A stretch of 64,000 bases of DNA from NCBI GenBank assembly GCA_049700835.1, contig JBNAUL010000003.1, positions 9,775 to 73,774 of the forward strand, written 5' to 3'. The notes under the pieces are model-generated. The model was not told the origin of the DNA and ran no database searches. It saw only the letters and a list, made by a program, of their open reading frames with translations. Source of the stretch: Candidatus Woesearchaeota archaeon. GTDB lineage: Archaea > Nanobdellota > Nanobdellia > Woesearchaeales > WAPY01. Shown here in pieces: positions 3,205 through 49,755 of the stretch. How positions within the stretch are numbered: position 1 is the stretch's first letter; each line of letters starts with the position of its first letter. The translations under genes and the position numbers were made by a program.

Positions 3205-3465
3205 ATGGCTGATGATAAAAGAGTTGCAAGGGAGTTGTTTGGAAAGACGGTTGTTAGCAAAACAGGAAAAAAGTTTGGGGAAGTTGGAGATATTGTTTTT
3301 GAGGCAAAATCAGGAGAGTTGATACACATCGTTCTTAAGAACCCGACACCTCATGCTGAAAGATTAGAGCTTGAAAAGGATAAGCAGGGAAGATTCCTCG
3401 TGCCTTTCAGCGCTGTAATGGCTTCAGGCGATTTCTTGGTTATATCTGAGGAAGACATCATTTAA
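3205..3465 (+). CDS. PRC-barrel domain protein
   Basis: ELFGKTVVSKTGKKFGEVGDIVFEAKSGEL...VPFSAVMASGDFLVI is a typical stand-alone archaeal PRC barrel; AGGTGA RBS. Confidence 0.85.
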   Translation: MADDKRVARELFGKTVVSKTGKKFGEVGDIVFEAKSGELIHIVLKNPTPHAERLELEKDKQGRFLVPFSAVMASGDFLVISEEDII

Positions 3466-35526: not shown

Positions 35527-38102
35527 GGCTATCAAACAATTTAATGCTCTTTGCAATTTTAATTATAATAGTAATAAACATATTCAATATCTATGTTTAT
35601 TATACGATAGGCCTTCCAAAAATTTCAGGCAGGGTAACCTCTGGTTTGGTTCACCTCTGCATCGGAAAGCCGTCAATAATAAACTTCATTTATCCTAATG
35701 AGTGGGATGTTTTAAATGGAGTGATTAATGTGAGCGTAATAGCAACAAATCCTGACGGCCCGCACTATGTTCAATGGGTTTTGTTTAGTTATGGAATATC
35801 TGCTGTCAATGATTTTTGTCAGGATAACTACGATGGAGATTCGTTTTACAGCTGCATCTTAAACACATCACTGCTTCCTGAAGGAAACTGCAATTACTTT
35901 TTCATGGCAAGATGCCAAGGTCCTTGCTCTCAATCAGGAACAACGCACTATTACATTTCAATAAATAATATTGACGAGCCCCCTGTTTGGGATAATTTTA
36001 AAAACAACATCACAACGAACTTTTCAAAATTTTCTTCTTGGGGCAACATAAGCAATGCAGTTATAGGAATTCCAGGCAAGGTTGTTGTCAATTTTTCAGG
36101 GCAAACAATAAATTTTGACAGCGCAAACCTTGATTCTTATCTTTTAATAGGCCAAAACTATCTCAACATAAACATTGACGCTTTGAAGTGCCTGAGAAAA
36201 CCAGCAACAGTCACTTTCTATAATTTGAGCTTTGATGTTCCAAAAATCCTCAGGAACAATCAAGTATGCGTCTCTCCTTTGTGTTCCTTGGTTTCATACG
36301 ATTCAAATTCAGTAACCTTCAGTGCAATATACTTAAATGGAATTTATAATGTTACTGAAGGAGCAACTCTGAATTTAAAACTTTTAGACACATCTGATTT
36401 TAGAAAGGTCTATGTTAAAGAAGAGATGAGTTTCTATGCTAATCTAACAAACTCAGTTGGGAGAGTAATAAATTTCAGCGATGTTTATTGCGACATTATG
36501 ATAAATGAAACAAATCACTCTTATGCTGAGAGGATGAGTTTTAACCAAGAACTTCAGCTTTACGAGTTTAAGAAGACATTCTATAGAGCAGGAAACTTTA
36601 AATACGCTGTTGTTTGCAATGCTACAACCCACTATTATAACATAATTGAAAACTCATCTACATTCACAATAACAAACAGGCCCCCAATTCTTGTAAATTT
36701 AATTCCTAACCAAACATGGCTTGAAAATACAATGGTTTCAGGAATAGATTTGGATGATTATTTTGTAGACCCTGACGGGGATGTCTTAAATTACACGCAC
36801 TCTCCTGTACAAAACATACAGATAAACATATCCCCATCAAATGTCGTTACATTCATTCCTCAGAATTGGTGGTATGGAAACAGAACAGTCATCTTTTACG
36901 CATACGATCCTTACAGGGCTTCGAATGAGAGCAATGTTGTTTATCTAACAGTAATCCATGTTCCAAGACCGGAACTTGAGCAATCGCAGGTAGGTGGAGG
37001 AGGAGGCACAGGATCCTCAGAACAAAGCATGCTCTGCACGCCTAAGTGGGAATGCACAGAATTTGGGCTATGTTTGGCAACAGGGATAAGGGTTAGGAAG
37101 TGCATTGATGCTAACAACTGCCAAAACGAAAACCTTGGAAAGCCAAAGGAGTTCGAGTATTGCAATTACACTCCTACATGTTTTGATTTGCTTAAGAATG
37201 GGAATGAGGAATGGGTTGATTGTGGGGGTCCTTGCAAACCTTGTCCTTCCTGCTACAATCTAATTCAGGATCAGGGAGAGACAGGGGTTGATTGTGGGGG
37301 TCCTTGCAAACCTTGTCCTTCTTGCTCAAATGGAATTCAGGATTTTGGCGAAGAAGGAATTGATTGTGGAGTTGTTTGCAATAAGAGCTGCTCAAGACTT
37401 GAAATTCCAGGAAGGATTAAAAAGAGAATTTCAAACGCTGTTTTTTTATTAGCTCTCTCAATGATTGCAGTTGTTTCGTCAGGATACCTTGTTTTAAAAA
37501 AACTGAGGAAACAAAAAGAGGCTCTTATACCAGAGAAAGTGTTGTTAAAATCAGAACTTAATCTAAGAAGCAACGATTTAATCCTTGATTTCATAAGGGG
37601 AATATTCAATTGCAGCGAGATACAATCAATATTCAGAAAATTGATTTCAGAATCCCTTGAAATAAATTATGAATTCACAACTCAAGAACTTGAGAAGGAA
37701 ATGGCAGCGAGCGAGCTTAAACAGGATTTAAAGCAGAGAATTTTAAATTTTTCAAGCTTGGTTGAAAGCAAAATTTTCAGCAACGAAAAGATGGGAATTA
37801 AGGAATACGAAGCGTCTGTTAATGAGTTGAGAGGGCTTGTTGAAGATATTTTAACTCCCATTATTGCAGAGGAGATAAAATTTTTGGAAGAGGAAATGAA
37901 AAGAAGAAAGTTTGTTTCAGAGATAAAGAAATTGATTAGAGATATTCAAAGCGATTTCAAGGAGAACAAAACAGAGAGCGCTGAAGCGAAGTATTCAAAA
38001 TTAAAGCGTCTGTATTCAAAACTGCCTCTTAACTTGAAGAAAAAATACTATTCAATAATCATAAAGCTCTATGAACAATTGAACAGAAACAAAGAAAGCT
38101 AA
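35523..38102 (+). CDS. Adhesin-like surface protein: Ig-like domains, Gly linker, DCGGPC repeats, second TM, helical cytoplasmic tail
   Basis: N-terminal TM; NRPP...IDLDDYFVDPDGD; GGGGG; CTPKWECTEFGLC; three DCG repeats; TM then ~200-aa tail. Confidence 0.8.
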   Translation: MRLSNNLMLFAILIIIVINIFNIYVYYTIGLPKISGRVTSGLVHLCIGKPSIINFIYPNEWDVLNGVINVSVIATNPDGPHYVQWVLFSYGISAVNDFCQDNYDGDSFYSCILNTSLLPEGNCNYFFMARCQGPCSQSGTTHYYISINNIDEPPVWDNFKNNITTNFSKFSSWGNISNAVIGIPGKVVVNFSGQTINFDSANLDSYLLIGQNYLNINIDALKCLRKPATVTFYNLSFDVPKILRNNQVCVSPLCSLVSYDSNSVTFSAIYLNGIYNVTEGATLNLKLLDTSDFRKVYVKEEMSFYANLTNSVGRVINFSDVYCDIMINETNHSYAERMSFNQELQLYEFKKTFYRAGNFKYAVVCNATTHYYNIIENSSTFTITNRPPILVNLIPNQTWLENTMVSGIDLDDYFVDPDGDVLNYTHSPVQNIQINISPSNVVTFIPQNWWYGNRTVIFYAYDPYRASNESNVVYLTVIHVPRPELEQSQVGGGGGTGSSEQSMLCTPKWECTEFGLCLATGIRVRKCIDANNCQNENLGKPKEFEYCNYTPTCFDLLKNGNEEWVDCGGPCKPCPSCYNLIQDQGETGVDCGGPCKPCPSCSNGIQDFGEEGIDCGVVCNKSCSRLEIPGRIKKRISNAVFLLALSMIAVVSSGYLVLKKLRKQKEALIPEKVLLKSELNLRSNDLILDFIRGIFNCSEIQSIFRKLISESLEINYEFTTQELEKEMAASELKQDLKQRILNFSSLVESKIFSNEKMGIKEYEASVNELRGLVEDILTPIIAEEIKFLEEEMKRRKFVSEIKKLIRDIQSDFKENKTESAEAKYSKLKRLYSKLPLNLKKKYYSIIIKLYEQLNRNKES
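37213..37321 (+). repeat. Intragenic 37-bp exact direct repeat (72-bp period)
   Basis: GGGTTGATTGTGGGGGTCCTTGCAAACCTTGTCCTTC at 37213-37249 and 37285-37321. Confidence 0.9.
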
Positions 38103-38133
38103 AGAAAAGAATGATAAAAAAGAGGAAATTAAG

Positions 38134-41100
38134 ATGATTAAAAAGCCAGAATTCAAGATGCATCACAGGATTACGGCACTGTTTGCAATCACTTTCCTAA
38201 TATTTGCATTTTCATTGATCATAGATTATTCTGATTTTTCATTCAACGCAAGCATTTTCAAAAACAAGAACTCAATCACAGGATATTCCATCTATGCAAA
38301 TCATGCACAAAGCCAAAATTCAAATGGTTCTCAAACTTTTAAAAAGATTCGCGTTTTAAACCCGAAATCCAACCCTGTTGTTTTTGGAGAATGGGTTATC
38401 AACTTTACAACAAATGGCATTGGAAATCTTACAATAAGGGCAATTAATGGAACCTTGTTTGAATACGATGTAAAACTCTTGAAGCTGTACTGCGATGGCT
38501 TTGACACAAACACGAGCTATTTAGGGGCAAAGATTTTTTTTGAGAACTGGAGTTGTTCTTCAGGAAGTCTTGTCTTATTAGTTCTAACCTCTGGAAAGCA
38601 CTATTTGGAATTTAATTTTTTGGACGACAGAGATTTTGCAGAAAACTATGCCTGTAACGAATCAACAATGCCTGTAATCAACGATGCTTTTGAACAATAC
38701 GGCTACGAAGGAATTTTGTTTTCAAAAAATATGGATGTTTCTGATCCTTCTGGATACCCAATAGTTTACTATGACATCTATGTCTCTGTAAACGACACGC
38801 TCAACATAACGATAAACAAGGATACAGGATTGATAACATTCTTTCCAGAGGATGATGATTTCGGAGAGCACATAGTTCAGTATTTGGCAAAGAACAACGA
38901 GAGTTGCTTGGGCTCAAAATGGATAACAATAATTGTTTATGACAGGCCTAACATAACAGCGCACTATCCTGAACAACTGAATTTTTCAATGTATGAAAAT
39001 TCAACCCAAAATTTTAATGTAACAGTCACTGACAGAAATTCGGATAACAATATAACATATTCATGGTATTTAGACTATGCTCTTGTTTCAAATGAGAGTT
39101 CTTATGAATATGCTCCTGATTTTTGCAGTTTTGGAGAGCACAATCTCACATTAATTGTTAAAAATTCTTACAACTTGACAGCAAATCTTTCTTGGAATTT
39201 AAGCGTTCTGAATGTTAACAGGCCGCCTTATTTTATCGGAGAAATACCCAATTTTTCTTGGAATGAGAGCAGCAACCTTACCAATGCTTTCAATCTTTTT
39301 GATTACTTCAACGACTCTGACTTGCACTGCAGCAATAACGAAGACAATTTGAGTTTCAACTATTCTATAATAGAAAATGATTATAATGTTTCAGTAGAAA
39401 TCAATCAGGGCAATGTAAGTTTTATCCCAGTTATACATTGGTTTGGGAACAGGACAATAGTATTCTACGCTTTTGACAGCTACGGCGCTTACAATCTAAG
39501 CAACAACATAACGCTCGAAGTTATTTTTGTCAACGACCCCCCAATAATAGGTTACAATAACTTTTCGGTTTTTGCCTATTCAAGAGTTAACAGAATGTTG
39601 AACTTTACTGATTATGACCTGCCTTATGATACCCTGACTTTTAATTATACGACTTTGGATGATTTTCCTGAATTTTATATGGAAAGCAGTACTGGAATGA
39701 TCAATTTCACTCCCACAAGCGTAGGAGAGCATTATGTCAATGTTACAGCAATAGACAGCCACAACGCTTCTGACTTAAAGATTATCTACATTGAAATAAA
39801 AAACAATTCACACCCACATTTCAATGAGATTCCTCCAAATGTCACGAAGCATTCAAATGAAACCTTTTATTATGCTGTCAATGCATCTGATGAAAACGGA
39901 GATGAAATAACTTATTATGTTGAAAGCATTGAGGATTTCCCAAGTTTGAACATAAACAAGACAACAGGAATTATGAATTTTTCATTGACAAAGTGCGATG
40001 TCGGGAACCATTCTGTAACAATAACAATAACTGATGTCTACAACGCTTCAAACTCTTCTTCATTTTTGTTTGAAGTAATCAACATTCCAGAACCGCCGAT
40101 TCTCGAGGAACTCTCCGACATGCATACGAGAATAAACAAAACATTTTCTATAATAATCTCTGCAGAAGATAATGACATTTTATGCCCAGGCGACAATCTT
40201 GATTTTGCAATCAATTCAACCTACGGAGGATTATTTTCAATAACAAACATAAATTCTACCAAGAACTATAAATCCAATTTCACTGCTTACAGCAATATCG
40301 TTGGGAACTATTCGATAAACATAAGTGTAATAGATTCCTATGGCCTGCAGGACAGCGTTTCAATAAACTTCTCATTCACAGAAAATCACGCTCCTGAAAT
40401 CAACGAGGACACCATAACAGCAAACGCTTCGCAAAATTTTTCATATTTGCTCAACATAACAGATTATGACGAAGATGAATTGACTATTGAATATTCAACA
40501 GACATGACAGGTTTTTACATGAGCCCAGCAGGTTTAATAAATTTCACTCCGCTAATCAATGAGACAGGAACTCATGTTTTGTATGTCAATGCTTCTGATT
40601 CAATAGCAATTTCCGAGAAAAACATCACTTTCATAATAATAACTCCAAACAACCCGCCAATCCTGAATGTTTCAAACCTAAACGCTACTGCTGGAATAAA
40701 CTTTGATTATCAAATAACTGCATACGATGAGGACAATGACACCCTTAATTTTTCATACAGCTTCATTGGTTCAAACATATCAAACTTCTTCATGAACTCA
40801 TCTGGATTTATAAATTTCACCCCACTCGATTCAGAAGTAGGGGTTTATTCTTTGAATATAAGCGTTAGCGATGGAAAATCCATTTCTTATGCGTTGATAA
40901 ATTTCACAATACTGTGGCAGAACCACAATCCTAAAATAATTGAATATTTTCCTTTATATGCAGAAACAAGCGAAGGCCAAAGCATAATCTTTAATGTTAC
41001 TATAAATGATAGCGATTTGTCCTATGGAGATTCGATAACTGCTGTATGGCGTGTTGATGATGCGCTTTTCAACTCCACACAAAAATATTCTGTTGGGAAC

Positions 41101-42639
41101 TACACCTATGCAGTATTTAACTACTCTCCAGGTTATTGCGATTATGGAACGCACAATATAACAATTCTTGCTTACGACTCTTATGGCAATTCAACATGGT
41201 TTTCTTGGAATGTTACTGTTAACAATACCAACAGGCCGCCTTTCTTTGGAATGAAGATTTTAAGAAGTATAAATGATTTCTCAAACGCAATAAGATCTAA
41301 CATAACACTATCAAACAACTCAATAGAATTGCTTAACTTGGAAAATTGTTCTGATTGCTACAATTATTCTGAATTTGGCTATCTTGAGATAGCAATAGAC
41401 CTTAGGGCAGACAATTCAAACTATGCTCAATTTGTTTTTGGGAAAATACTTTTAGAAGGAAGCATAAGCAATGTTACAAACATAAGCATTGAAACAAGGA
41501 CTTCTATGGACAACATTACTTGGAGCGATTGGAGTTTGCAGCAAAACAACACAAAAATCTCTTCAGCACCAAATCGCTATCTTGAACTGAGATTAAATTT
41601 ATCGACAACGAACAATTCCATAAGTCCAAAAATAAATAACATAACCATAGAATACTTCATCTCAAATCTCACTATACAGGAGAACATAAACCCATGGTGG
41701 CTAAACCTGAATTATTTCTTCTATGACGAAGATATCAGCTGTAGGGATGACAGTTTGACATTCAACAGTTCCTTGAACTCGATATTAGGCATAAACATTT
41801 TCAACGGATTGGTCCAACTGCAACCGGTGCAGGACGGAACAGCAGACATTTATTTTACAGCAACAGATTCCTACAATGAAACAGCAAACAGCAACACAGC
41901 AAGGATAATAATAGAAAATGTTGAGCAAATTACTCCTCAAACAATCTATGTCGGAGGTGGAACTTCATCTACGATTAAGGAAAAATATGTTGACAAACCT
42001 TATTCCCAAAACATAATCTTTCCTTTGGAAGCAACAATCTATCAGAATGATACGATAATAATTCCATTGGAAATAGTTAATTCTGGAAATGAAACCCTTG
42101 AAGGAATAACGCTTGAAGCATTTTCTGAGAGAGATGTTTCGATGGCATTCGCAAAGAACTCATTTGAAAAAATCCCAAAAAACTCAAAGGAGAGAACAGA
42201 ATTGATAGTTGTTTCTTACAAGACGTATCCTTCTTATGAGATTGTTGTTAAGGCAAAGGTTAAAAAACCTGAATTTGAGGACTCTGCAAAGATACTTATA
42301 AACTCAATAGAGCTTGGTTCAGAATCAGAAAAGGAGTTCAACACAAAGATAACCTTTACAAGGGACCTGCTCAGGGAAAATCCTGAGTGCCTGGAGTTGA
42401 ATGAGCTTTTAAACAAAGTAGAGGATTACATAAGAAATAAGGAGTATGAAAAAGCAAATGCAATGATCGAATCAACAATTAGGGCTTGCAAATACTTGTT
42501 AACCTCAAAATCTCCGATAAAAGAAAAACCTGCAAGAATAATCATATCAAGGAATTACTCTACAATTGCAATTCTCTTTGTCGTTATCGCAATGCTTACC
42601 CTTGTGATATTCTACTATGTTAAGAGGAGGTTTTCTTAA
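38134..42639 (+). CDS. Large cadherin-like/Ig repeat adhesin (1501 aa), C-terminal TM
   Basis: Repeated NxPP...DxD...G(L/M/F)INFTP...VGxH units of ~90 aa; very many N-x-S/T sequons; C-terminal TM + KRR. Confidence 0.85.
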   Translation: MIKKPEFKMHHRITALFAITFLIFAFSLIIDYSDFSFNASIFKNKNSITGYSIYANHAQSQNSNGSQTFKKIRVLNPKSNPVVFGEWVINFTTNGIGNLTIRAINGTLFEYDVKLLKLYCDGFDTNTSYLGAKIFFENWSCSSGSLVLLVLTSGKHYLEFNFLDDRDFAENYACNESTMPVINDAFEQYGYEGILFSKNMDVSDPSGYPIVYYDIYVSVNDTLNITINKDTGLITFFPEDDDFGEHIVQYLAKNNESCLGSKWITIIVYDRPNITAHYPEQLNFSMYENSTQNFNVTVTDRNSDNNITYSWYLDYALVSNESSYEYAPDFCSFGEHNLTLIVKNSYNLTANLSWNLSVLNVNRPPYFIGEIPNFSWNESSNLTNAFNLFDYFNDSDLHCSNNEDNLSFNYSIIENDYNVSVEINQGNVSFIPVIHWFGNRTIVFYAFDSYGAYNLSNNITLEVIFVNDPPIIGYNNFSVFAYSRVNRMLNFTDYDLPYDTLTFNYTTLDDFPEFYMESSTGMINFTPTSVGEHYVNVTAIDSHNASDLKIIYIEIKNNSHPHFNEIPPNVTKHSNETFYYAVNASDENGDEITYYVESIEDFPSLNINKTTGIMNFSLTKCDVGNHSVTITITDVYNASNSSSFLFEVINIPEPPILEELSDMHTRINKTFSIIISAEDNDILCPGDNLDFAINSTYGGLFSITNINSTKNYKSNFTAYSNIVGNYSINISVIDSYGLQDSVSINFSFTENHAPEINEDTITANASQNFSYLLNITDYDEDELTIEYSTDMTGFYMSPAGLINFTPLINETGTHVLYVNASDSIAISEKNITFIIITPNNPPILNVSNLNATAGINFDYQITAYDEDNDTLNFSYSFIGSNISNFFMNSSGFINFTPLDSEVGVYSLNISVSDGKSISYALINFTILWQNHNPKIIEYFPLYAETSEGQSIIFNVTINDSDLSYGDSITAVWRVDDALFNSTQKYSVGNYTYAVFNYSPGYCDYGTHNITILAYDSYGNSTWFSWNVTVNNTNRPPFFGMKILRSINDFSNAIRSNITLSNNSIELLNLENCSDCYNYSEFGYLEIAIDLRADNSNYAQFVFGKILLEGSISNVTNISIETRTSMDNITWSDWSLQQNNTKISSAPNRYLELRLNLSTTNNSISPKINNITIEYFISNLTIQENINPWWLNLNYFFYDEDISCRDDSLTFNSSLNSILGINIFNGLVQLQPVQDGTADIYFTATDSYNETANSNTARIIIENVEQITPQTIYVGGGTSSTIKEKYVDKPYSQNIIFPLEATIYQNDTIIIPLEIVNSGNETLEGITLEAFSERDVSMAFAKNSFEKIPKNSKERTELIVVSYKTYPSYEIVVKAKVKKPEFEDSAKILINSIELGSESEKEFNTKITFTRDLLRENPECLELNELLNKVEDYIRNKEYEKANAMIESTIRACKYLLTSKSPIKEKPARIIISRNYSTIAILFVVIAMLTLVIFYYVKRRFS

Positions 42640-42710
42640 GGAACCATTCACAGATATTTGATTCACAATCTTTGGAAAAATTTAAAAATCATCTTATTTT
42701 TCGTTTTTGC

Positions 42711-45062
42711 ATGTTTAAAAAGGAATTGAAAAGAGGGCAGATGCAATCTGTTTTTTTAATAGCTTTTGTGGCAATAGCATGTGCATTCCTCTTAATATTT
42801 GGCTACAATGCTTTAAAGAGTATTAAATCCTCAGGAAAAAAAGCAGAAACAGCAAATTTTTTCATGGAGCTGAAATCAGGAATTTCTGAAATTTCAGAAC
42901 AAGAAGACAGCGTAGAAAAATTTAATTTAAAAGCGCCTTCTGATATGCAGCTCGTTTGTTTTGTCAGCAACGCCTTGTTAGAAAATAAAGAACTTCTAGA
43001 GAATTATTGCAGCAATTTAAGAGATGATTTTTACTATGCGGAAAGGATAAGAATATGCTCTCTTTTAATGGAAGGAGTTAAAAAGAATGTTTTTTTGATT
43101 CCATCTTTTGAGAACTATTATGTTCAAGGGATAATTCTGGAGGACTTTATTTTGTGTGTTCCTACATACAACAATCACTTGCATCTTTTATTGTTGGGTT
43201 TAAAAGGAAACACTTACCTTAGAAAGGACAATTCATTCACAAAGATATGCACGCTTGATGAAGATTGCAATCAAGATGAATTCTGCAACGATAAAAACAT
43301 TTGCGTTTTAAAGTGCAAACGCAACGATGACTGCAAATCAGAAGAAAAGGTTTGCAATTTTAACACAGGCAGATGCGTTGATTGCATGTTTGATGAAGAT
43401 TGCGATTCAGATTTGTTCTGCAGTCAAAATAACACTTGCATTGAATGCTTTTTAGATAATGATTGCAATGAAGATGAAATTTGTTTAAATAACAAATGCG
43501 AAAAAATCAGGTGCGGTTATGCAGATATTAACTATTCCAACGGTGAAAAGTTTTGCATTTCAAACAGAGTTGTTGGAATTTGCGAAATAATAAATCATAG
43601 CCAAAGCATAAAGAACATTGATTGCGAAAATAACTTTTGCGTTAATGGCGCTTGCGAGAATACTTGTAATAATGGAATTTTAGAAGAGTGGGAGGATTGT
43701 GAGGGAGACAATTTACGGGATAAGGAATGTAAAGATTTAAAAGACCCTGTTTTTGGTTTTAATTATAACGGAGGAAAATTAAGTTGCTATGATAACTGTT
43801 CTTTTGATGTTTCCATGTGTGATTCCCCAATTCTATCGTACATGCTTAATTATCAGGACGAAAATTTATTATGTTTGTTGAATAAAAGCGTCAATAAAAA
43901 TTCGCAAGAATGTTTTTCTTTTGTTGGTAGATTAGCAAATTCTTTATGCAACGGAGACACACTTTATTGCGATTCTTCAATTAACTTTTTAAAAGAGATA
44001 TGCACAAAATCTTATGGAAAAAATAATTTTGATTTAGTTCTCTTTAAATTGCCTGCTGACAGCACGCAGCAATTTTATTATAATACTTATAATATTAAGG
44101 GAAATTTTGGAATTGATGATTTAGTGATTTCATCAAAAATAATTCCTAAACAAGATTACTCAGGAGAAGGTTTTGTATGCTATGATCTTTGCAATAAGGG
44201 CTATGATTTCTTGAAAATTTTTATATACAAAAATAACAAAAAAGGCAAAATACTGAAAGTAGAAAGATCTTCTTATCCATGCAGCATTTGCAGATTTTGG
44301 TTAAAGGATCATTCTTGTGAGAGCGCATTAACTTGCAGCAATCAAGTTTTTGGCTTGGTTTGTTCTGACAATAAAGTTTGCTGTAAGACAAATGCTCTAT
44401 GTCCTAACAATAAACTTTATTATTGTTCTGATGTATGCTCTTCGGGAGATTATGTTAATTATGAGTATTACTGCAGTGATGGAAAGAAGTGCTGTTATTC
44501 CGCAAGCAGCGATGAATGCCTAATGAAGAATGGATTTTATGTTTTTATCGACAAATGTGCTTCAAATTGTATAATTCAAACATCATCAGTTCCTTCAGGT
44601 TATGTTTGTTGCAAGGCGAATTGCTGCGGTAACAAAAATTGCGAGTTTGAAGAAGATGAACATAACTGCAAAGCAGACTGCAGTAGCAATTCATCGCCTA
44701 CACCAAATCCTACTTCAAACTCAACACCTAATCCAACACCTACTCAATCTCCTTCTCCAACTCCTACACCCAAAAATTGCGATCCAAATAAAAAGATAAC
44801 TTGTTCTTGGATGAGAGATCCTAAATGCGTGGAAGGAAAATGCGTTTACAGAGGAAAAGCAATAGTAGTAACTTGCGATGAGTGCAACATTGATGAATGC
44901 TGCCAGCATAATGAACCCTTGGTCTGCGATCCTCCTTGCGAAGTTTTAGATTGTTCAAAAGATTGCACATGCACTTGCGATCCACCTTGCAAATATCCAT
45001 ATAGTTGTGATACTGGTTCAGGAGAGTGCACTTATGCACCATCTGGTTACATATGCCCTTAA
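42711..45062 (+). CDS. Class III signal peptide protein with long Cys-rich region and Pro/Thr linker
   Basis: KRG|QMQSVFLIAFVAIACAFLLIFGY; VCFV motif; CxxDxDC repeats; PTPNPT linker. Confidence 0.75.
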   Translation: MFKKELKRGQMQSVFLIAFVAIACAFLLIFGYNALKSIKSSGKKAETANFFMELKSGISEISEQEDSVEKFNLKAPSDMQLVCFVSNALLENKELLENYCSNLRDDFYYAERIRICSLLMEGVKKNVFLIPSFENYYVQGIILEDFILCVPTYNNHLHLLLLGLKGNTYLRKDNSFTKICTLDEDCNQDEFCNDKNICVLKCKRNDDCKSEEKVCNFNTGRCVDCMFDEDCDSDLFCSQNNTCIECFLDNDCNEDEICLNNKCEKIRCGYADINYSNGEKFCISNRVVGICEIINHSQSIKNIDCENNFCVNGACENTCNNGILEEWEDCEGDNLRDKECKDLKDPVFGFNYNGGKLSCYDNCSFDVSMCDSPILSYMLNYQDENLLCLLNKSVNKNSQECFSFVGRLANSLCNGDTLYCDSSINFLKEICTKSYGKNNFDLVLFKLPADSTQQFYYNTYNIKGNFGIDDLVISSKIIPKQDYSGEGFVCYDLCNKGYDFLKIFIYKNNKKGKILKVERSSYPCSICRFWLKDHSCESALTCSNQVFGLVCSDNKVCCKTNALCPNNKLYYCSDVCSSGDYVNYEYYCSDGKKCCYSASSDECLMKNGFYVFIDKCASNCIIQTSSVPSGYVCCKANCCGNKNCEFEEDEHNCKADCSSNSSPTPNPTSNSTPNPTPTQSPSPTPTPKNCDPNKKITCSWMRDPKCVEGKCVYRGKAIVVTCDECNIDECCQHNEPLVCDPPCEVLDCSKDCTCTCDPPCKYPYSCDTGSGECTYAPSGYICP

Positions 45063-45119
45063 TATTTTTTAAAATTAAAAGAGAAGCAGTAAAAATCTTT
45101 TATTTTATCTTTATTTTAT

Positions 45120-45857
45120 CTATTTCATCTTTTCAATAATTTTGTTATAAAAATCAACTATTTCCTCTCTAACGCTCTTCTTTTCCTCTATGCTAAGTTT
45201 ATTGTAAATTTCTCTTATCAATTCATACTTCTTTTGGGCTTCTTCCAAGTTGAAATTTAAGAGTTCGTTTCCTTCTAACAGGAGTTCGTAAATACTTTCC
45301 AATTCCTCTTTTGGTTCTTTGATTTTCTTTTTTTCAATCTGCTCTTTTCTAATTCCTGTATTTTCTTCTCTTTTTTCCTTTCCAACGATTACAGAATTTT
45401 TTCTTTTAGCAAAATTATTTTTTGTTCCTTTGACCCTCTTTATGATTGGATGAAACACAGAAATTTTAAATCCTTTCTGCTCATTGCTGTTTTCAATCTG
45501 ATTTTTTGCTTTTAGAATGTATCTCTTGAATTCTCTTGCGATTTTTTTTATTCTCTCATGCTCAATTTTTTTGTTTGGGAATTTCTTGTATTCATATTCT
45601 TCTGCGACCTTCAATAAATCAAGAATTTTCTGCTTTTCTTTTGAATCTATCCTTCTGTTGGCAAGCTCCTTTTCAAGCTCTTCGTAGGTAAAGGAATACC
45701 TTATGTTGTATTTCGAAGCAAAATAATTCTTTATTATGTGGAATAGCTGTATGCTTGAGTCCTCAACATTAGTAATTTTCAGCCTTCTTAGAAATCTTTC
45801 AAGCACATTCAAAGTATGATTTTTCAATACAACTTCCTTGTCAACCTCTTTTTTCAT
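45120..45857 (-). CDS. Soluble helical protein similar to cytoplasmic tail of 35523..38102
   Basis: IRYSFTYEELEKEL and AQKKYELIREIYNKL motifs; divergent from moxR. Confidence 0.7.
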   Translation of the reverse strand: MKKEVDKEVVLKNHTLNVLERFLRRLKITNVEDSSIQLFHIIKNYFASKYNIRYSFTYEELEKELANRRIDSKEKQKILDLLKVAEEYEYKKFPNKKIEHERIKKIAREFKRYILKAKNQIENSNEQKGFKISVFHPIIKRVKGTKNNFAKRKNSVIVGKEKREENTGIRKEQIEKKKIKEPKEELESIYELLLEGNELLNFNLEEAQKKYELIREIYNKLSIEEKKSVREEIVDFYNKIIEKMK

Positions 45858-45990
45858 ATCAATATTATCATTTGAATAAACTATTTAAATTTAACTGAGT
45901 TTTTAAAAAGAGATTGCCATCTTAGCAATTTTTTTTACTCTTATAAAGTGAAACTATAAAAATTTAAACTTTTTTTTATCTTTAAAACTT

Positions 45991-46971
45991 ATGGACAATA
46001 TTTCAAAACAGGTTGTTGCATGCAAGAAAGATATAGAATTGATAAAAAAAGAAGTTTCAAAGGTCGTCATAGGTCAGCAGGAGCTTGTTGATTCAATAAT
46101 AAGGGCAATAATCTCTGACGGGCATGTTCTGCTTGAAGGAGTTCCAGGTCTTGCAAAAACTCTTGTTGTAAGGACAATCGCCTCTGTTTTTGGTTGTGAT
46201 TTCAAAAGAATACAATTCACTCCTGATCTGCTTCCAGCAGACCTGATTGGAATAACAACCTATGACAAGGAGAAGGGTTTTTATGTTGTAAAAGGACCAA
46301 TCTTTACAAACTTTGTTTTGGCTGACGAGATAAACAGGGCACCGCCAAAGGTTCAGTCCGCATTGCTTGAATGCATGCAGGAAAGGCAGGCAACGATTAG
46401 TAGGGAATCCTTCCAAATCCAATCACCTTTTTTTGTTCTTGCAACTCAAAATCCATTGGAGTCCTTAGGAACATATCCGCTGCCAGAAGCACAGATTGAC
46501 AGGTTTTTATTCAAGTTGAAGGTTGGTTATCCTAATCTTGAAGAGGAAAAATTGATTTTGGAAAACAACATTACCATAAGAAAGTTTGAGGCTTATAACC
46601 TGAAACCTGTTTATTCATCTGAAAAACTGATAAAATTGCAGGAAACAGTAAAACAGATTTATTTGGACGATAAAATAAAGAAGTACATAGTATCTATAGT
46701 TGATGCTACAAGGCACCCAAGCGATTATGGGATAAAGCTTGGCAAGTATATAGAGTGGGGTGCTTCCCCAAGAGCATCTATAGGGCTTTATATTGCTTCA
46801 AAAGCAGAGGCTCTAATGCAGGGAAAGACATTTGTTGTTCCGCAGTTTGTAAAGAACATCGCATACGATGTTTTAAGGCACAGAATAATAGTTAATTATG
46901 AAGGGCAATCAGAAAATATAACTTCTGAGGACATTATCAAAGAAGTGCTAAACAGGGTTCCAATACCTTAA
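45991..46971 (+). CDS. moxR: MoxR-family AAA+ ATPase
   Basis: GHVLLEGVPGLAKT, RIQFTPDLLPAD, LADEINRAPPKVQSALLE, GTYPLPEAQIDRF, GASPRAS. Confidence 0.96.
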   Translation: MDNISKQVVACKKDIELIKKEVSKVVIGQQELVDSIIRAIISDGHVLLEGVPGLAKTLVVRTIASVFGCDFKRIQFTPDLLPADLIGITTYDKEKGFYVVKGPIFTNFVLADEINRAPPKVQSALLECMQERQATISRESFQIQSPFFVLATQNPLESLGTYPLPEAQIDRFLFKLKVGYPNLEEEKLILENNITIRKFEAYNLKPVYSSEKLIKLQETVKQIYLDDKIKKYIVSIVDATRHPSDYGIKLGKYIEWGASPRASIGLYIASKAEALMQGKTFVVPQFVKNIAYDVLRHRIIVNYEGQSENITSEDIIKEVLNRVPIP

Positions 46972-47087
46972 TCAAAAATTTAGAAAAAGAACTTAATAAA
47001 ATTTTAGAATTTAATAAGGAATTTGATGATAAATTTGATGAAAAATTCAATGAATAATAGATCATAAAATTCTTTTTAGGTGTAAAA

Positions 47088-47978
47088 ATGTATGAATTCA
47101 ATGTCAATCTAAAACCGCTTTTAAAGCAAATGGAGATTTTTTCAAAAAAGGATATTGCAGGAGGAGGTTTTGCAGGTGGCTATACAAGCGTTTTCAAGGG
47201 AAGGGGGTTAGAGTTTGAGGGCTACAGAGAGTATACTCCTAATGATGACGCGAGCTTGATTGACTGGAAAGCAAGTTTGAGGAGTAATGAACTTCTGATA
47301 AAAGAATTTGCAGAGGAAAGAAATGTAAATGTTGTATTTGCTTTTGATGTAAGCTCTTCGATGTCTTATGCTTCTACAAAAAAACTTAAGAATGAGTATG
47401 CCATTGAATTGATAGCAAGCATTGCATTTTCAATCTTGAGGGCAGGAGATAGCATTGGACTGCTGATGTTTTCTGACAGAGTGAAGTATTATCTTAAACC
47501 AGCTCTTGGGCATAAACAATACTATGTAATAATAAAAGCTCTTTTGAATCCGAAGCTTTACGAGGGAGATTTTGAATTATCAAAAGCGCTTTCGTTTTTA
47601 ACAACAAACCTTAAAAAGGGTTCTATTGTTATTTTGGTTTCTGATTTTATTGGGTTAAAGTCAGGTTGGCAGAATGTTTTGGATGTTGCTGTTAAAAAGT
47701 TTGATTTCATTGGAATAATGGTTCGGGATCCTGTTGACAACGAACTTCCAGTAAAAGTTGGACCTGTTGTCATTTCAGACCCTTTTTCAGACGATGAATT
47801 ATTAGTAGATCCTGATTTCATAAAACAGAAGTATGACAACTACACAAGGAACCAGAGAGCGGCTGTTAAAGAGGAGTTTTTAAAAAGGAGATGTGGCTTC
47901 ATAGAATTGAGAACAGACAAACCTTTTGAAGATGAGATACTAAAATTTTTTAAGCAGAGGGCAAAACAATGGAGATAA
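47088..47978 (+). CDS. DUF58 domain protein
   Basis: FKGRGLEFEGYREYTPNDDASLIDWKAS, FAEER, DVSSSM, SDF. Confidence 0.93.
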   Translation: MYEFNVNLKPLLKQMEIFSKKDIAGGGFAGGYTSVFKGRGLEFEGYREYTPNDDASLIDWKASLRSNELLIKEFAEERNVNVVFAFDVSSSMSYASTKKLKNEYAIELIASIAFSILRAGDSIGLLMFSDRVKYYLKPALGHKQYYVIIKALLNPKLYEGDFELSKALSFLTTNLKKGSIVILVSDFIGLKSGWQNVLDVAVKKFDFIGIMVRDPVDNELPVKVGPVVISDPFSDDELLVDPDFIKQKYDNYTRNQRAAVKEEFLKRRCGFIELRTDKPFEDEILKFFKQRAKQWR

Positions 47979-48922
47979 TATTTTTAAGACCAGAATACCT
48001 TTGGCTTTTGATTTCGCTTCCATTATTGGCAGCAACCCATTTCTTTGTTTTAAGATATTTGAAGAGAAGGGCTTTAAAGTTTGCCAATTTTGAAGCAATA
48101 AGAAGGGTTGTCGGCCCAGAAGGAACTTCAAAGAATGTGAATTTCTTATCAAAAAATCTTGGGCTTTTGATATTGAGAATGCTTGCCTTGTTTTTTGTAA
48201 TAACAGGATTGGCAACTCCTGTTGTTTATTATTCTGCTAAGACATCGTCCTCTGTTTTTGTTTTGGCTATAGACACTTCTTCAAGCATGCTTGCAGACGA
48301 TTTTACTCCTTCAAGATTAGAATCTGCAAAGCATTCTGCTCTGAAGTTTTTAGAGAAAATGCCATCAAAGACAAGAGCAGGGCTTATCTCTTTTTCAGGT
48401 TCCTCTTTTGTTGAAAACGACCTAACAGATGACAAACTTCTGCTGAGCTCAAAAATAAAAAATCTAGGTGTAAGTTCAATAGGAGGAACAGATATAGGGA
48501 GCGCATTAATAACCTCAACAAACCTTCTCTTTAAAGAAAACTCCTCAAAGATGATCATTTTAATAACAGATGGGCAAAGCAATGTCGGCGTTGAACCTTT
48601 AAAAGGAGCAGAGTATGCCAAGTCCAAAAATGTTGTTGTTCACACAATAGGAATTGGAACTAAATCAGGAGGTTCTTTTTTGCTTCCAGAAGCTGTTTCG
48701 ACCCTTGACGAGGAAACCCTGAAGAAGATTTCGCAAATGACTTATGGAGAGTATTTTAGGGCTGAAAATCCAAAGTCGTTAGAACGGGCTTATGAGACAA
48801 TAGCAGAGCACTCTGTTCAAAGAATATCAAGAAATATAAGTTTTGAACTACTGCTGATTGCGATTGTATTGTTGTTCATTGAATGGTCTCTAATGAATAC
48901 AAGATACAGAACTCTGCCGTAA
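47969..48922 (+). CDS. BatA-like von Willebrand factor A membrane protein
   Basis: FLRPEYLWLL N-terminus, MIDAS DTSSSM, GGTDIG, ITDGQ, LDEETL; C-terminal TM. Confidence 0.93.
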   Translation: MEIIFLRPEYLWLLISLPLLAATHFFVLRYLKRRALKFANFEAIRRVVGPEGTSKNVNFLSKNLGLLILRMLALFFVITGLATPVVYYSAKTSSSVFVLAIDTSSSMLADDFTPSRLESAKHSALKFLEKMPSKTRAGLISFSGSSFVENDLTDDKLLLSSKIKNLGVSSIGGTDIGSALITSTNLLFKENSSKMIILITDGQSNVGVEPLKGAEYAKSKNVVVHTIGIGTKSGGSFLLPEAVSTLDEETLKKISQMTYGEYFRAENPKSLERAYETIAEHSVQRISRNISFELLLIAIVLLFIEWSLMNTRYRTLP

Positions 48923-48968: not shown

Positions 48969-49631
48969 TTATTTATGCAAAAACTCACCTATCTTTCTTT
49001 GCTTTGACTTTTTGTTCAGCTCTGAATAGGTGCTCCAAGATTTCCTGAACAATGCATTTAATCTTTGGTCATTAAAATTGTTCTTAAGAAATTCTCTTGT
49101 CAAAGGATCGCTTGGATAACCAGAACCAAAATCAACCTTGTATTTGTTTTTTATTTTTTCTATTTCTTGCTCTCTGACGACCTTTGCGATTATTGAGGCA
49201 GCCCCGACAACCTTGTATCTAAAATCAGCCTTGTGCTCAACTAAAAACTCAATGTTCTTTTTTAGAACATGCTCTTTTAAAAAATCCTCAAATTTCTTTT
49301 TGTTATTGCTTGGGCAATCGATTATGATTTTATCAGGGTTCAAGCAGTTTATTATTTCAACCATCTTGAGAGCTTCCAACTCGTTCAATCTTTTTTGGTT
49401 AACAAAGAAATCAATTTCTTTAGGAGGAATGATTATTATTTTGCTCTTTTTACTCAGCTTAAGTATCTTTTGAAACAATTCTTCTCTGGTTTTTTGAGCA
49501 AGGAGTTTTGAATCTTTAACTCCTATTCTTTCAAGTTTTTCAATGTTCTTTTCATCAAAAGAAACTCCTGCCAAAACCAAAGGCCCTATTACAGGGCCTC
49601 TTCCTGCTTCGTCTATTCCTGCAACAATCAT
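48969..49631 (-). CDS. rnhB: Ribonuclease HII
   Basis: GIDEAGRGPVIGP, VKDSK, EHKAD, AASIIAKV, GSGYPSDP, RKSW. Confidence 0.96.
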   Translation of the reverse strand: MIVAGIDEAGRGPVIGPLVLAGVSFDEKNIEKLERIGVKDSKLLAQKTREELFQKILKLSKKSKIIIIPPKEIDFFVNQKRLNELEALKMVEIINCLNPDKIIIDCPSNNKKKFEDFLKEHVLKKNIEFLVEHKADFRYKVVGAASIIAKVVREQEIEKIKNKYKVDFGSGYPSDPLTREFLKNNFNDQRLNALFRKSWSTYSELNKKSKQRKIGEFLHK

Positions 49632-49755
49632 ATTATTTAGTATGCTGAATTTATTTTTTTTATTTTTTGTTTTTATTTTTTTTATAACCAAAAAATCAAA
49701 TGAAAAATCAGATGAAAAAGAATGGTAACGAGCAATTAATTTAACAGAGGATAAA

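Follow-up and report, generated by a model that had tools for sequence, protein, structure and literature searches.

A helical tail domain and its soluble paralog beside moxR: a candidate link between surface proteins and a Bat-like system in Woesearchaeota

What might a MoxR-type ATPase and its DUF58 partner touch when large surface proteins are encoded next to them? Operons of the MoxR(MRP)-DUF58-VWA type, the 'Bat' operons, are widespread, yet neither their client nor their function is settled, and published accounts describe the function as elusive or indirect (PMC3557215, PMC11834572). A locus that bears on this question lies in a stretch of 64,000 nucleotides (nt), hereafter the window, of contig JBNAUL010000003.1 from a Candidatus Woesearchaeota archaeon (assembly GCA_049700835.1). 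Here an adhesin-like single-pass surface protein (P0001) ends in a helical tail, and a soluble protein built from the same two modules (P0002) is encoded head-to-head with moxR, which is followed by genes for a DUF58 protein and a BatA-like membrane VWA protein. Comparison of the sequences leads us to propose, with moderate confidence, that surface proteins are coupled to MoxR/DUF58 by an archaeal Bat-like system, of which the shared cassette forms the cytoplasmic module.

The P0001 tail and P0002 are true paralogs, as confirmed by several lines of comparison. A sequence-only reading of the window had aligned the two by eye; all of the strings it quoted are found in the translations where it had placed them, and the homology that it proposed holds under composition-adjusted BLASTP, profile alignment and shuffling. 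With composition adjustment, BLASTP of full-length P0001 against P0002 reports the first block only (19 of 47 identities, E-value (E) 4e-5), and the tail alone gives 23 of 65 identities (E 9e-6); the second, C-terminal block goes unreported by pairwise BLASTP. When a profile of seven P0002 homologs is aligned with the tail by hhalign, both blocks appear in collinear order over 154 columns (probability (Prob) 96.3, E 1.5e-9). Both also pass a Smith-Waterman test against 2000 composition-preserving shuffles, with scores of 86 versus 35.7 +/- 6.3 for the N block (0/2000) and 61 versus 32.4 +/- 6.1 for the C block (2/2000), the whole proteins scoring 119 versus 61 +/- 9.6 (0/2000). Fifteen such tails aligned with a deep profile of the soluble N-terminal domain give Prob 99.7 and E 7.7e-26, and the helix pattern of the tail in its AlphaFold2 model, five helices plus three, matches that of P0002. 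A protein search of the organism's own genome with P0002 returned P0001 and P0002 only. In a maximum-likelihood tree of 39 N-domains, the labels 'tail' and 'soluble' require 3 changes, compared with a mean of 13 over 500 label shuffles (0/500 as low), and the window's two copies each join their own kind from L003, L006 and other loci. Because tails group with tails and soluble proteins with soluble proteins, the duplication is old and both copies have been retained.

Local hidden Markov models (HMMs) split the shared cassette into an N-domain of ~115 amino acids (aa) with five helices and a C-module of ~65 aa with three. The AlphaFold2 model of the tail has a predicted local distance difference test score (pLDDT) of 90.7 and a predicted template modelling score of 0.70; that of P0002 has a pLDDT of 73, with N-domain helices at residues 7-25, 28-49, 58-66, 72-90 and 96-116 and a disordered K/E-rich linker at 118-181. 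The N-domain motif Y-E-F-T-Y-E-E-L is nearly invariant, a loose form of it occurring in 110 of the 150 best matches, and its conserved TxxE lies at the start of helix 3 in the P0002 model, with T57 just before helix 58-66. P0001 has hydrophobic segments at residues 7-25 (an N-terminal signal or anchor) and 636-654, and its 198-aa tail follows the second transmembrane (TM) segment and the sequence KKLRKQK, which by the positive-inside rule would place the tail in the cytoplasm. Its ectodomain carries a weak Ig-like match (Big_9, E 0.0016, below cut-off) and Cys-rich CGGPCKPCPSC repeats; Big_9 is above cut-off in homologs that bear the same tail. No hydrophobic or TM segment was found in P0002.

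This cassette is common in its phylum. An exhaustive profile search yielded 967 cluster representatives (50% identity) with E no higher than 0.001, of which 299 reach E 1e-10 or below, and 112 of the 201 sampled genomes of the phylum contain a match (E 1e-5 or below). Among the 150 best of the 967 representatives, 119 are soluble with the N-domain first, 16 consist of the C-module only, nine have an N-terminal TM segment followed by the N-domain, and six carry the cassette as a tail behind the TM segment of a larger Big_9-bearing protein. The C-module is present in one to five copies in relatives. When P0002, the tail and 43 relatives were scanned against Pfam and NCBIfam, neither module was covered by any family; since the 967 representatives have no Pfam or NCBIfam model, defining the domain would improve the annotation of many small archaeal genomes.

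The link to moxR and DUF58 noticed in the window is conserved in related loci. The sharing of a divergent region by P0002 and moxR was borne out by the coordinates, with 133 nt between the P0002 start codon and the moxR ATG at 45991. A set of 32 loci was then taken from species-representative genomes, chosen by motif alone, and open reading frames (ORFs) were called in them; the relatives of the locus are labelled Candidatus Woesearchaeota. Soluble-type ORFs lie on the opposite strand and directly adjoin MoxR, followed by DUF58 and a BatA-like gene, in 16 of 21 cases, with computed gaps of -276 to 449 nt (14 at 71-449 nt; the two negative values stem from over-long ORF calls). The remaining five comprise two at contig ends and three without MoxR in the flank. 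Tail-type single-pass ORFs number 16, seven of which share their locus with MoxR, and both forms occur together in six loci besides the window. DUF58 is present in 101 of the 112 domain-positive genomes versus 50 of the 89 domain-negative ones, counts that were tabulated by hand over genomes that are related and not independent.

These counts also bear on a different reading, in which the cassette is mainly a pairing module: P0002 would bind or co-oligomerise with the adhesin tail and scaffold or cluster surface proteins from inside, and MoxR-DUF58-BatA would be co-regulated neighbours that make no direct contact. That the window's locus and six related ones each carry two copies fits this idea, as do the two tail-bearing proteins in all four bacterial Bat operons described below, the age and retention of both paralogs, and the C-module, a repeatable three-helix unit with weak tetratricopeptide repeat (TPR)-type matches in long relatives, which is typical of protein-protein interaction modules. 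However, many genomes and loci carry only one form, with 10 of the 16 tail-type loci having no soluble copy in the fetched stretch, and the head-to-head placement with moxR is kept across lineages in which the soluble protein and P0002 have only about 30% identity. Because this placement persists across diverged lineages, co-regulation alone explains the arrangement less well, and we judge the pairing reading unlikely.

An indication of what the domain may do comes from bacterial Bat operons. In four of four records (Parabacteroides, Prevotella, Legionella, Sagittula) the gene order is MoxR-DUF58-(hypothetical or DUF4381)-BatA-BatB-(TPR)-BatD. At the C-terminal end of BatD proteins a TM helix leads into a helical tail of some 125 aa, and the protein encoded between DUF58 and BatA ('BatIII') has the same arrangement of TM segment and tail. 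Each of the four operons has two tail-bearing membrane proteins, and the archaeal locus has two copies of the cassette. The first lead was a structure search of the ESM Atlas, in which four of ten rows were BatD clusters from Bacteroidota, matched weakly over residues 1-130 with a TM-score of about 0.4. Genome scans across Bacteroidota then supplied 161 BatD tails and 11 BatIII tails for profiles, which were compared by hhalign with a deep archaeal N-domain profile of 126 sequences. The N-domain aligns with BatD tails at Prob 94.3 and E 1.1e-7 over 104 columns, and with BatD and BatIII tails combined at Prob 95.7 and E 1e-8 over 106 columns; as an independent query, the 15 archaeal tails align with the combined set at Prob 94.9 and E 4.3e-8 over 107 columns. 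As controls, alignments run in reverse reached E 0.05-0.09, and 30 permutations of the columns reached E 0.04 at best. The match became significant only when both profiles were diverse. Judged from these profiles, the archaeal N-domain and the cytoplasmic tail domain of BatD and BatIII are homologous. The BatD-tail profile in turn matches BatIII in about 10 genomes (E 1e-4 to 9e-3), and the slot protein of Prevotella nigrescens (L036, annotated as hypothetical) carries a BatD-type ectodomain repeat at 24.1 bits, equal to the Pfam cut-off. Given this repeat together with the tail domain, the Bacteroidales slot protein can be regarded as a miniature BatD.

It could be objected that the cassette is functionally unconnected with MoxR and simply a generic helical domain, its adjacency reflecting gene order inherited in one archaeal lineage and its similarity to BatD a distant common fold. 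Structure searches do return generic helical bundles only. Foldseek against the PDB gave nothing at E 0.001 or below for either model (E at least 0.4), the top rows being weak HEPN-type or designed helical bundles, and a wide VIA-align search gave a best Z-score of 9.7, for the C-module against generic three-helix or TPR-like units, and about 8.3 for the N-domain against HEPN or hemerythrin-like bundles; scores of 8-9.7 do not exceed the background that the tool states for helical models. The related loci all belong to a single phylum, and DUF58 occurs without the cassette in 50 of 89 genomes. Against this, the E-values of the BatD profile comparison are five to six orders of magnitude below the controls, and a homologous domain occurs in the same kind of operon in another domain of life. 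Since the homologous domain is found in both bacterial and archaeal operons, a chance association with MoxR-DUF58-BatA arising twice is unlikely, and the objection as a whole seems quite improbable.

The sequence-only reading had likened the helical bundle to the DUF4381 and DUF4129 domains of bacterial moxR-DUF58 operons. The part of this comparison that stood is that the N-domain is homologous to helical domains in such operons, namely the BatD and BatIII tails; a direct link to DUF4381 was not supported, and one to DUF4129 was marginal. The DUF4381 model (PF14316, gathering score 27.2 bits) has no match in the organism's own genome or among eight members of the cassette family at E up to 10, and an alignment of 77 DUF4381 sequences from Legionella and other Gammaproteobacteria gave no significant match to the N-domain (E 0.081, 35 columns) or to the archaeal tails (E 0.36), so the direct link fails. 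BatD and BatIII tails do match DUF4381 weakly (E 5e-4 to 7e-4, 100-101 collinear columns), which provides a transitive link only. In proteobacterial MoxR-DUF58-DUF4381-BatA-BatB-BatD operons the DUF4381 protein occupies the same position as BatIII and, in Legionella and Sagittula, has an N-terminal TM segment followed by a helical domain, as in the nine cassette representatives of that layout, whereas its WWPLAPGW motif is absent from the archaeal proteins. P0002 has neither the N-terminal TM segment of the DUF4381 type nor a gene position between DUF58 and BatA. DUF4129 forms the tails of membrane proteins encoded near DUF58-MoxR and transglutaminase genes. The DUF4129 model (PF13559, 24.8 bits) likewise has no match in the own genome or among the eight members at E up to 10, and the profile match of the N-domain to 21 Bacteroidota DUF4129 sequences is marginal (E 0.0017, Prob 15, 56 columns), the reversed control giving 0.16 and the best of 30 permutations 0.014, about 8-fold worse than the match. 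In this weak alignment KTNxDYxxEL falls on FTYEELxxEL and FEYVWYG on EYEYKKF, and the domain again lies behind a TM segment. On this evidence neither family can be claimed, but the likeness seen in the sequence-only reading leads to the right neighbourhood.

The genes downstream of moxR, listed with the other features in Table 1, form a Bat-type core, with MoxR (AAA_3), DUF58 and a BatA-type membrane VWA protein in a row. The DUF58 and BatA genes (47088..48922) overlap, with zero genes between them. The BatA-like protein has a double-TM N-terminus, a VWA domain with DTSSS and a C-terminal TM segment, and matches the NCBIfam model VWA_BatA_Lepto at E 1.4e-30, below cut-off. Between 45991 and the RNase HII-like gene there is neither a further VWA gene nor one for a TPR or BatD-domain protein; because BatB, the BatC/BatE TPR proteins and BatD are missing from the same operon, the archaeal locus is a reduced Bat operon.

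Table 1. Features of the locus, in window coordinates.
Feature	Position	Strand	Evidence
Ribbon-helix-helix (CopG-type) protein, 81 aa	35281..35526	+	RHH_1 E 9.1e-7
Adhesin-like single-pass surface protein (P0001), 859 aa	35523..38102	+	ORF and translation
TM helix of P0001, about residues 636-661, then KKLRKQK	37428..37505	+	Hydrophobicity
P0001 tail N-domain, residues 659-777, five helices, motif YEFTTQEL	37497..37853	+	hmmsearch envelope, AlphaFold2 model, hhalign
P0001 tail C-module, residues 794-859, three helices	37902..38099	+	hmmsearch envelope, shuffle test 2/2000, model helices
Surface protein, 1501 aa, Ig-like domains, C-terminal TM anchor	38134..42639	+	Pfam Big_9 E 4.8e-19, He_PIG E 6.6e-11
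Cys-rich protein, 796 aa, N-terminal hydrophobic anchor, Pro/Thr/Ser-rich stretch	42672..45062	+	ORF
Soluble paralog (P0002), 245 aa: N-domain, disordered K/E-rich linker, C-module	45120..45857	-	ORF, homologs, AlphaFold2 model
P0002 C-module, residues 182-245, three-helix unit	45123..45314	-	AlphaFold2 model, hmmsearch envelope
P0002 N-domain, residues 1-118, motif YSFTYEEL	45504..45857	-	AlphaFold2 model, hmmsearch envelope, hhalign
A/T-rich divergent intergenic region P0002/moxR, 133 nt	45858..45990	.	Gene coordinates
MoxR-type AAA+ ATPase, 326 aa	45991..46971	+	Pfam AAA_3 E 7.4e-60, AAA_lid_2 E 8e-17
DUF58 protein, 296 aa, VWA-like, DxSxS motif (DVSSS), without TM segment	47088..47978	+	Pfam DUF58 E 7.1e-48
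BatA-like membrane VWA protein, 317 aa	47969..48922	+	Pfam VWA E 6.3e-22, BatA N-terminal domain E 2.6e-9
RNase HII-like gene	48969..49691		ORF

If the MoxR-DUF58-[membrane protein]-BatA...BatD operon of bacteria has its Woesearchaeota counterpart here, the locus would place P0001, with its ectodomain, single TM helix and homologous tail domain, in the position of BatD, and P0002, beside moxR, in that of the small slot protein between DUF58 and BatA. MoxR and DUF58 lack TM segments and so should be cytoplasmic, and the basic loop between the first two TM helices of BatA suggests that its VWA domain is outside the cell. The outward-facing parts would then be the BatA VWA domain and the Ig-like ectodomains, and the inward-facing ones the tail domain and its soluble paralog together with DUF58 and MoxR. 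In such an arrangement the tail domain would most likely act as a cytoplasmic handle that couples the MoxR/DUF58 machinery to the surface protein, and P0002 may serve as an adaptor or partner in the same putative complex. The sequence-only reading had likewise cast the domain as a putative docking tag for MoxR/DUF58, with the soluble copy as adaptor or competitor. The cassette would touch DUF58, MoxR or its own second copy, and the output would be the assembly or remodelling of surface proteins.

P0002 could instead be a decoy that competes with the adhesin tail for a site on MoxR/DUF58 and so tunes the amount of surface protein processed. The tail and P0002 have the same domains in the same order, P0002 shares a putative divergent promoter with moxR, and soluble forms outnumber tails by 119 to 6 among the 150 best representatives, all of which would suit a competitor. 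Sequence data cannot separate a decoy from an adaptor, but the equivalent slot protein is membrane-anchored in Bacteroidota and Proteobacteria, and for this reason a subunit of the complex fits better than a freely titrating decoy, which we regard as very unlikely.

Several observations weigh against the proposed coupling of surface proteins to MoxR/DUF58. Three of the 21 soluble-type genes (L011, L024, L029) lack a neighbouring MoxR across several kb of flanking sequence. DUF58 is found in 50 of 89 domain-negative genomes, which indicates that the MoxR module can do without the cassette, and 11 of the 112 domain-positive genomes lack DUF58, although some of these are weak matches and may be of the C-module only. 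The alignment of the N-domain with BatIII tails alone is modest (Prob 54, E 1.3e-4, 80 columns), and a shallow seven-sequence profile against single BatD and BatIII proteins gave no significant match (E 0.11 and 0.69). P0001 has the single TM segment and conserved helical tail that characterize BatD, but PF13584, the BatD-type ectodomain repeat, has no match in it, the own genome giving one sub-threshold match (18.8 bits) on another contig; lacking this ectodomain, P0001 is not a member of the BatD family, and the parallel rests on the tail. The conserved TxxE, placed at the N-terminus of helix 3 in the model, may serve to cap the helix structurally and not to make contacts. Finally, the function of the bacterial system itself is called elusive in published work (PMC3557215, PMC11834572).

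With regard to the TxxE motif, its invariant Glu was also considered as a MIDAS ligand for DUF58 (MIDAS, metal ion-dependent adhesion site); this candidate was rejected, as nothing spoke for it and the position at the N-terminus of helix 3 fits a capping box.

The C-module has relatives of its own. It is unrelated to the N-domain (E 0.0076) and to BatD tails (E 0.015). About 19 of 47 weak PDB sequence matches to it are J-domains (E 0.02-0.9), aligned around helices II-IV at profile positions of about 157-210; assignment as a J-domain (DnaJ) was rejected, with P0002 residues 182-245 lacking HPD and every match at E 0.02 or above, and the likeness is probably limited to a shared A..Y..L...K..Y helix-pair pattern. 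Without the N-domain, the C-module forms tandem arrays of four to five units in proteins of 500-830 aa, several of which have sub-threshold TPR matches, and the own genome has one further C-module in a 457-aa frame upstream of the window, at 3233-3421 of the contig. An unusual combination is found in P0091, a giant protein of 2351 aa with four TM segments, in which the cassette is internal (residues 702-943) and flanked by two large Ig-like parts; it appears to be a fusion of two normally separate surface-protein genes.

The surroundings of the two paralogs are those of a small genome (1.07 Mb, 98.7% complete), the window being A/T-rich with about 32% G+C. The gene for the 1501-aa surface protein lies between the P0001 and P0002 genes, a position that is kept in related loci by tblastn. 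In the window the 796-aa Cys-rich gene is placed between it and P0002; Pfam and NCBIfam scans of the Cys-rich protein gave no match. In L003, the closest related locus, only 49 nt separate the end of the 1501-aa homolog from the homolog of P0002, and no counterpart of the Cys-rich gene was found there by tblastn, so that this gene looks like an insertion specific to the present genome. At the other end, the 3' end of the CopG-type gene overlaps the start of the P0001 gene by 4 nt, and its 81-aa product is a possible local regulator. The same gene order is seen in the Woesearchaeota-type loci L004, L006, L013-L015, L017, L022, L024, L027, L028, L032 and L034. Their records bear the titles 'uncultured Methanosarcinales archaeon' and 'Alphaproteobacteria bacterium', and one protein, P0007, is named 'Nitrospiraceae bacterium'; these labels look like binning or naming errors. 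DNA near-identical to 45100..47000 is present in contigs from two metagenome runs on hot springs, which belong to two studies and have word shares of 1.00 and 0.66; the former may be the source sample. No RNA data set was listed for this interval.

The Bat/MoxR-DUF58 system is already known. No published description of the shared cytoplasmic domain was found in the literature searched, and the domain itself, its occurrence twice per locus, its soluble form beside moxR and the fact that DPANN archaea carry it on Ig-like surface proteins appear to be undescribed there. One unannotated cytoplasmic domain would link BatD, the DUF58-adjacent slot protein and the tails of archaeal Ig-like surface proteins, and it provides a candidate for what the ATPase and its VWA-like partner touch in the cytoplasm. 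In archaea, one of the two copies has become soluble and lies head-to-head with moxR. For DPANN archaea, the coupling proposed here would tie large surface proteins, thought to mediate contact with the host, to an energy-using cytoplasmic module. A bolder and doubtful extension is that bacterial and DPANN MoxR-DUF58 machines work through one conserved tail domain, present twice per locus on a neighbour of MoxR-DUF58 and on a large surface protein, so that ATP-driven remodelling or signalling would reach the surface protein from inside; the giant Ig-like proteins with which host-dependent Woesearchaeota presumably hold on to the host cell would be regulated in this way. If true, it would amount to a prokaryotic inside-out control of adhesion, with a logic comparable to integrin activation.

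The two archaeal copies can be set beside the known bacterial proteins. BatIII, like P0002, is encoded next to MoxR-DUF58 and is the second tail-bearing protein of its operon, with the tail domain behind a TM segment; however, BatIII is membrane-anchored with a small ectodomain and its gene lies between DUF58 and BatA, whereas P0002 is soluble and divergent from moxR. The BatD ectodomain consists of DUF11-like repeats (PF13584), in contrast to the weak Ig-like/Big_9 match and Cys-rich repeats of P0001, and the BatD tail lacks the three-helix C-module of the archaeal cassette. Despite these differences, the BatD tail of Bacteroidota and the tail of P0001 are alike in being helical domains, of ~110-125 aa in BatD, directly behind the single TM segment of a protein with a large ectodomain, in being encoded together with MoxR-DUF58-BatA, and in falling outside the Pfam BatD model, and they hold in common a hydrophobic-aromatic helix, an [ST]-x-acidic turn and an E-[FY]-x-x-[FY] helix.

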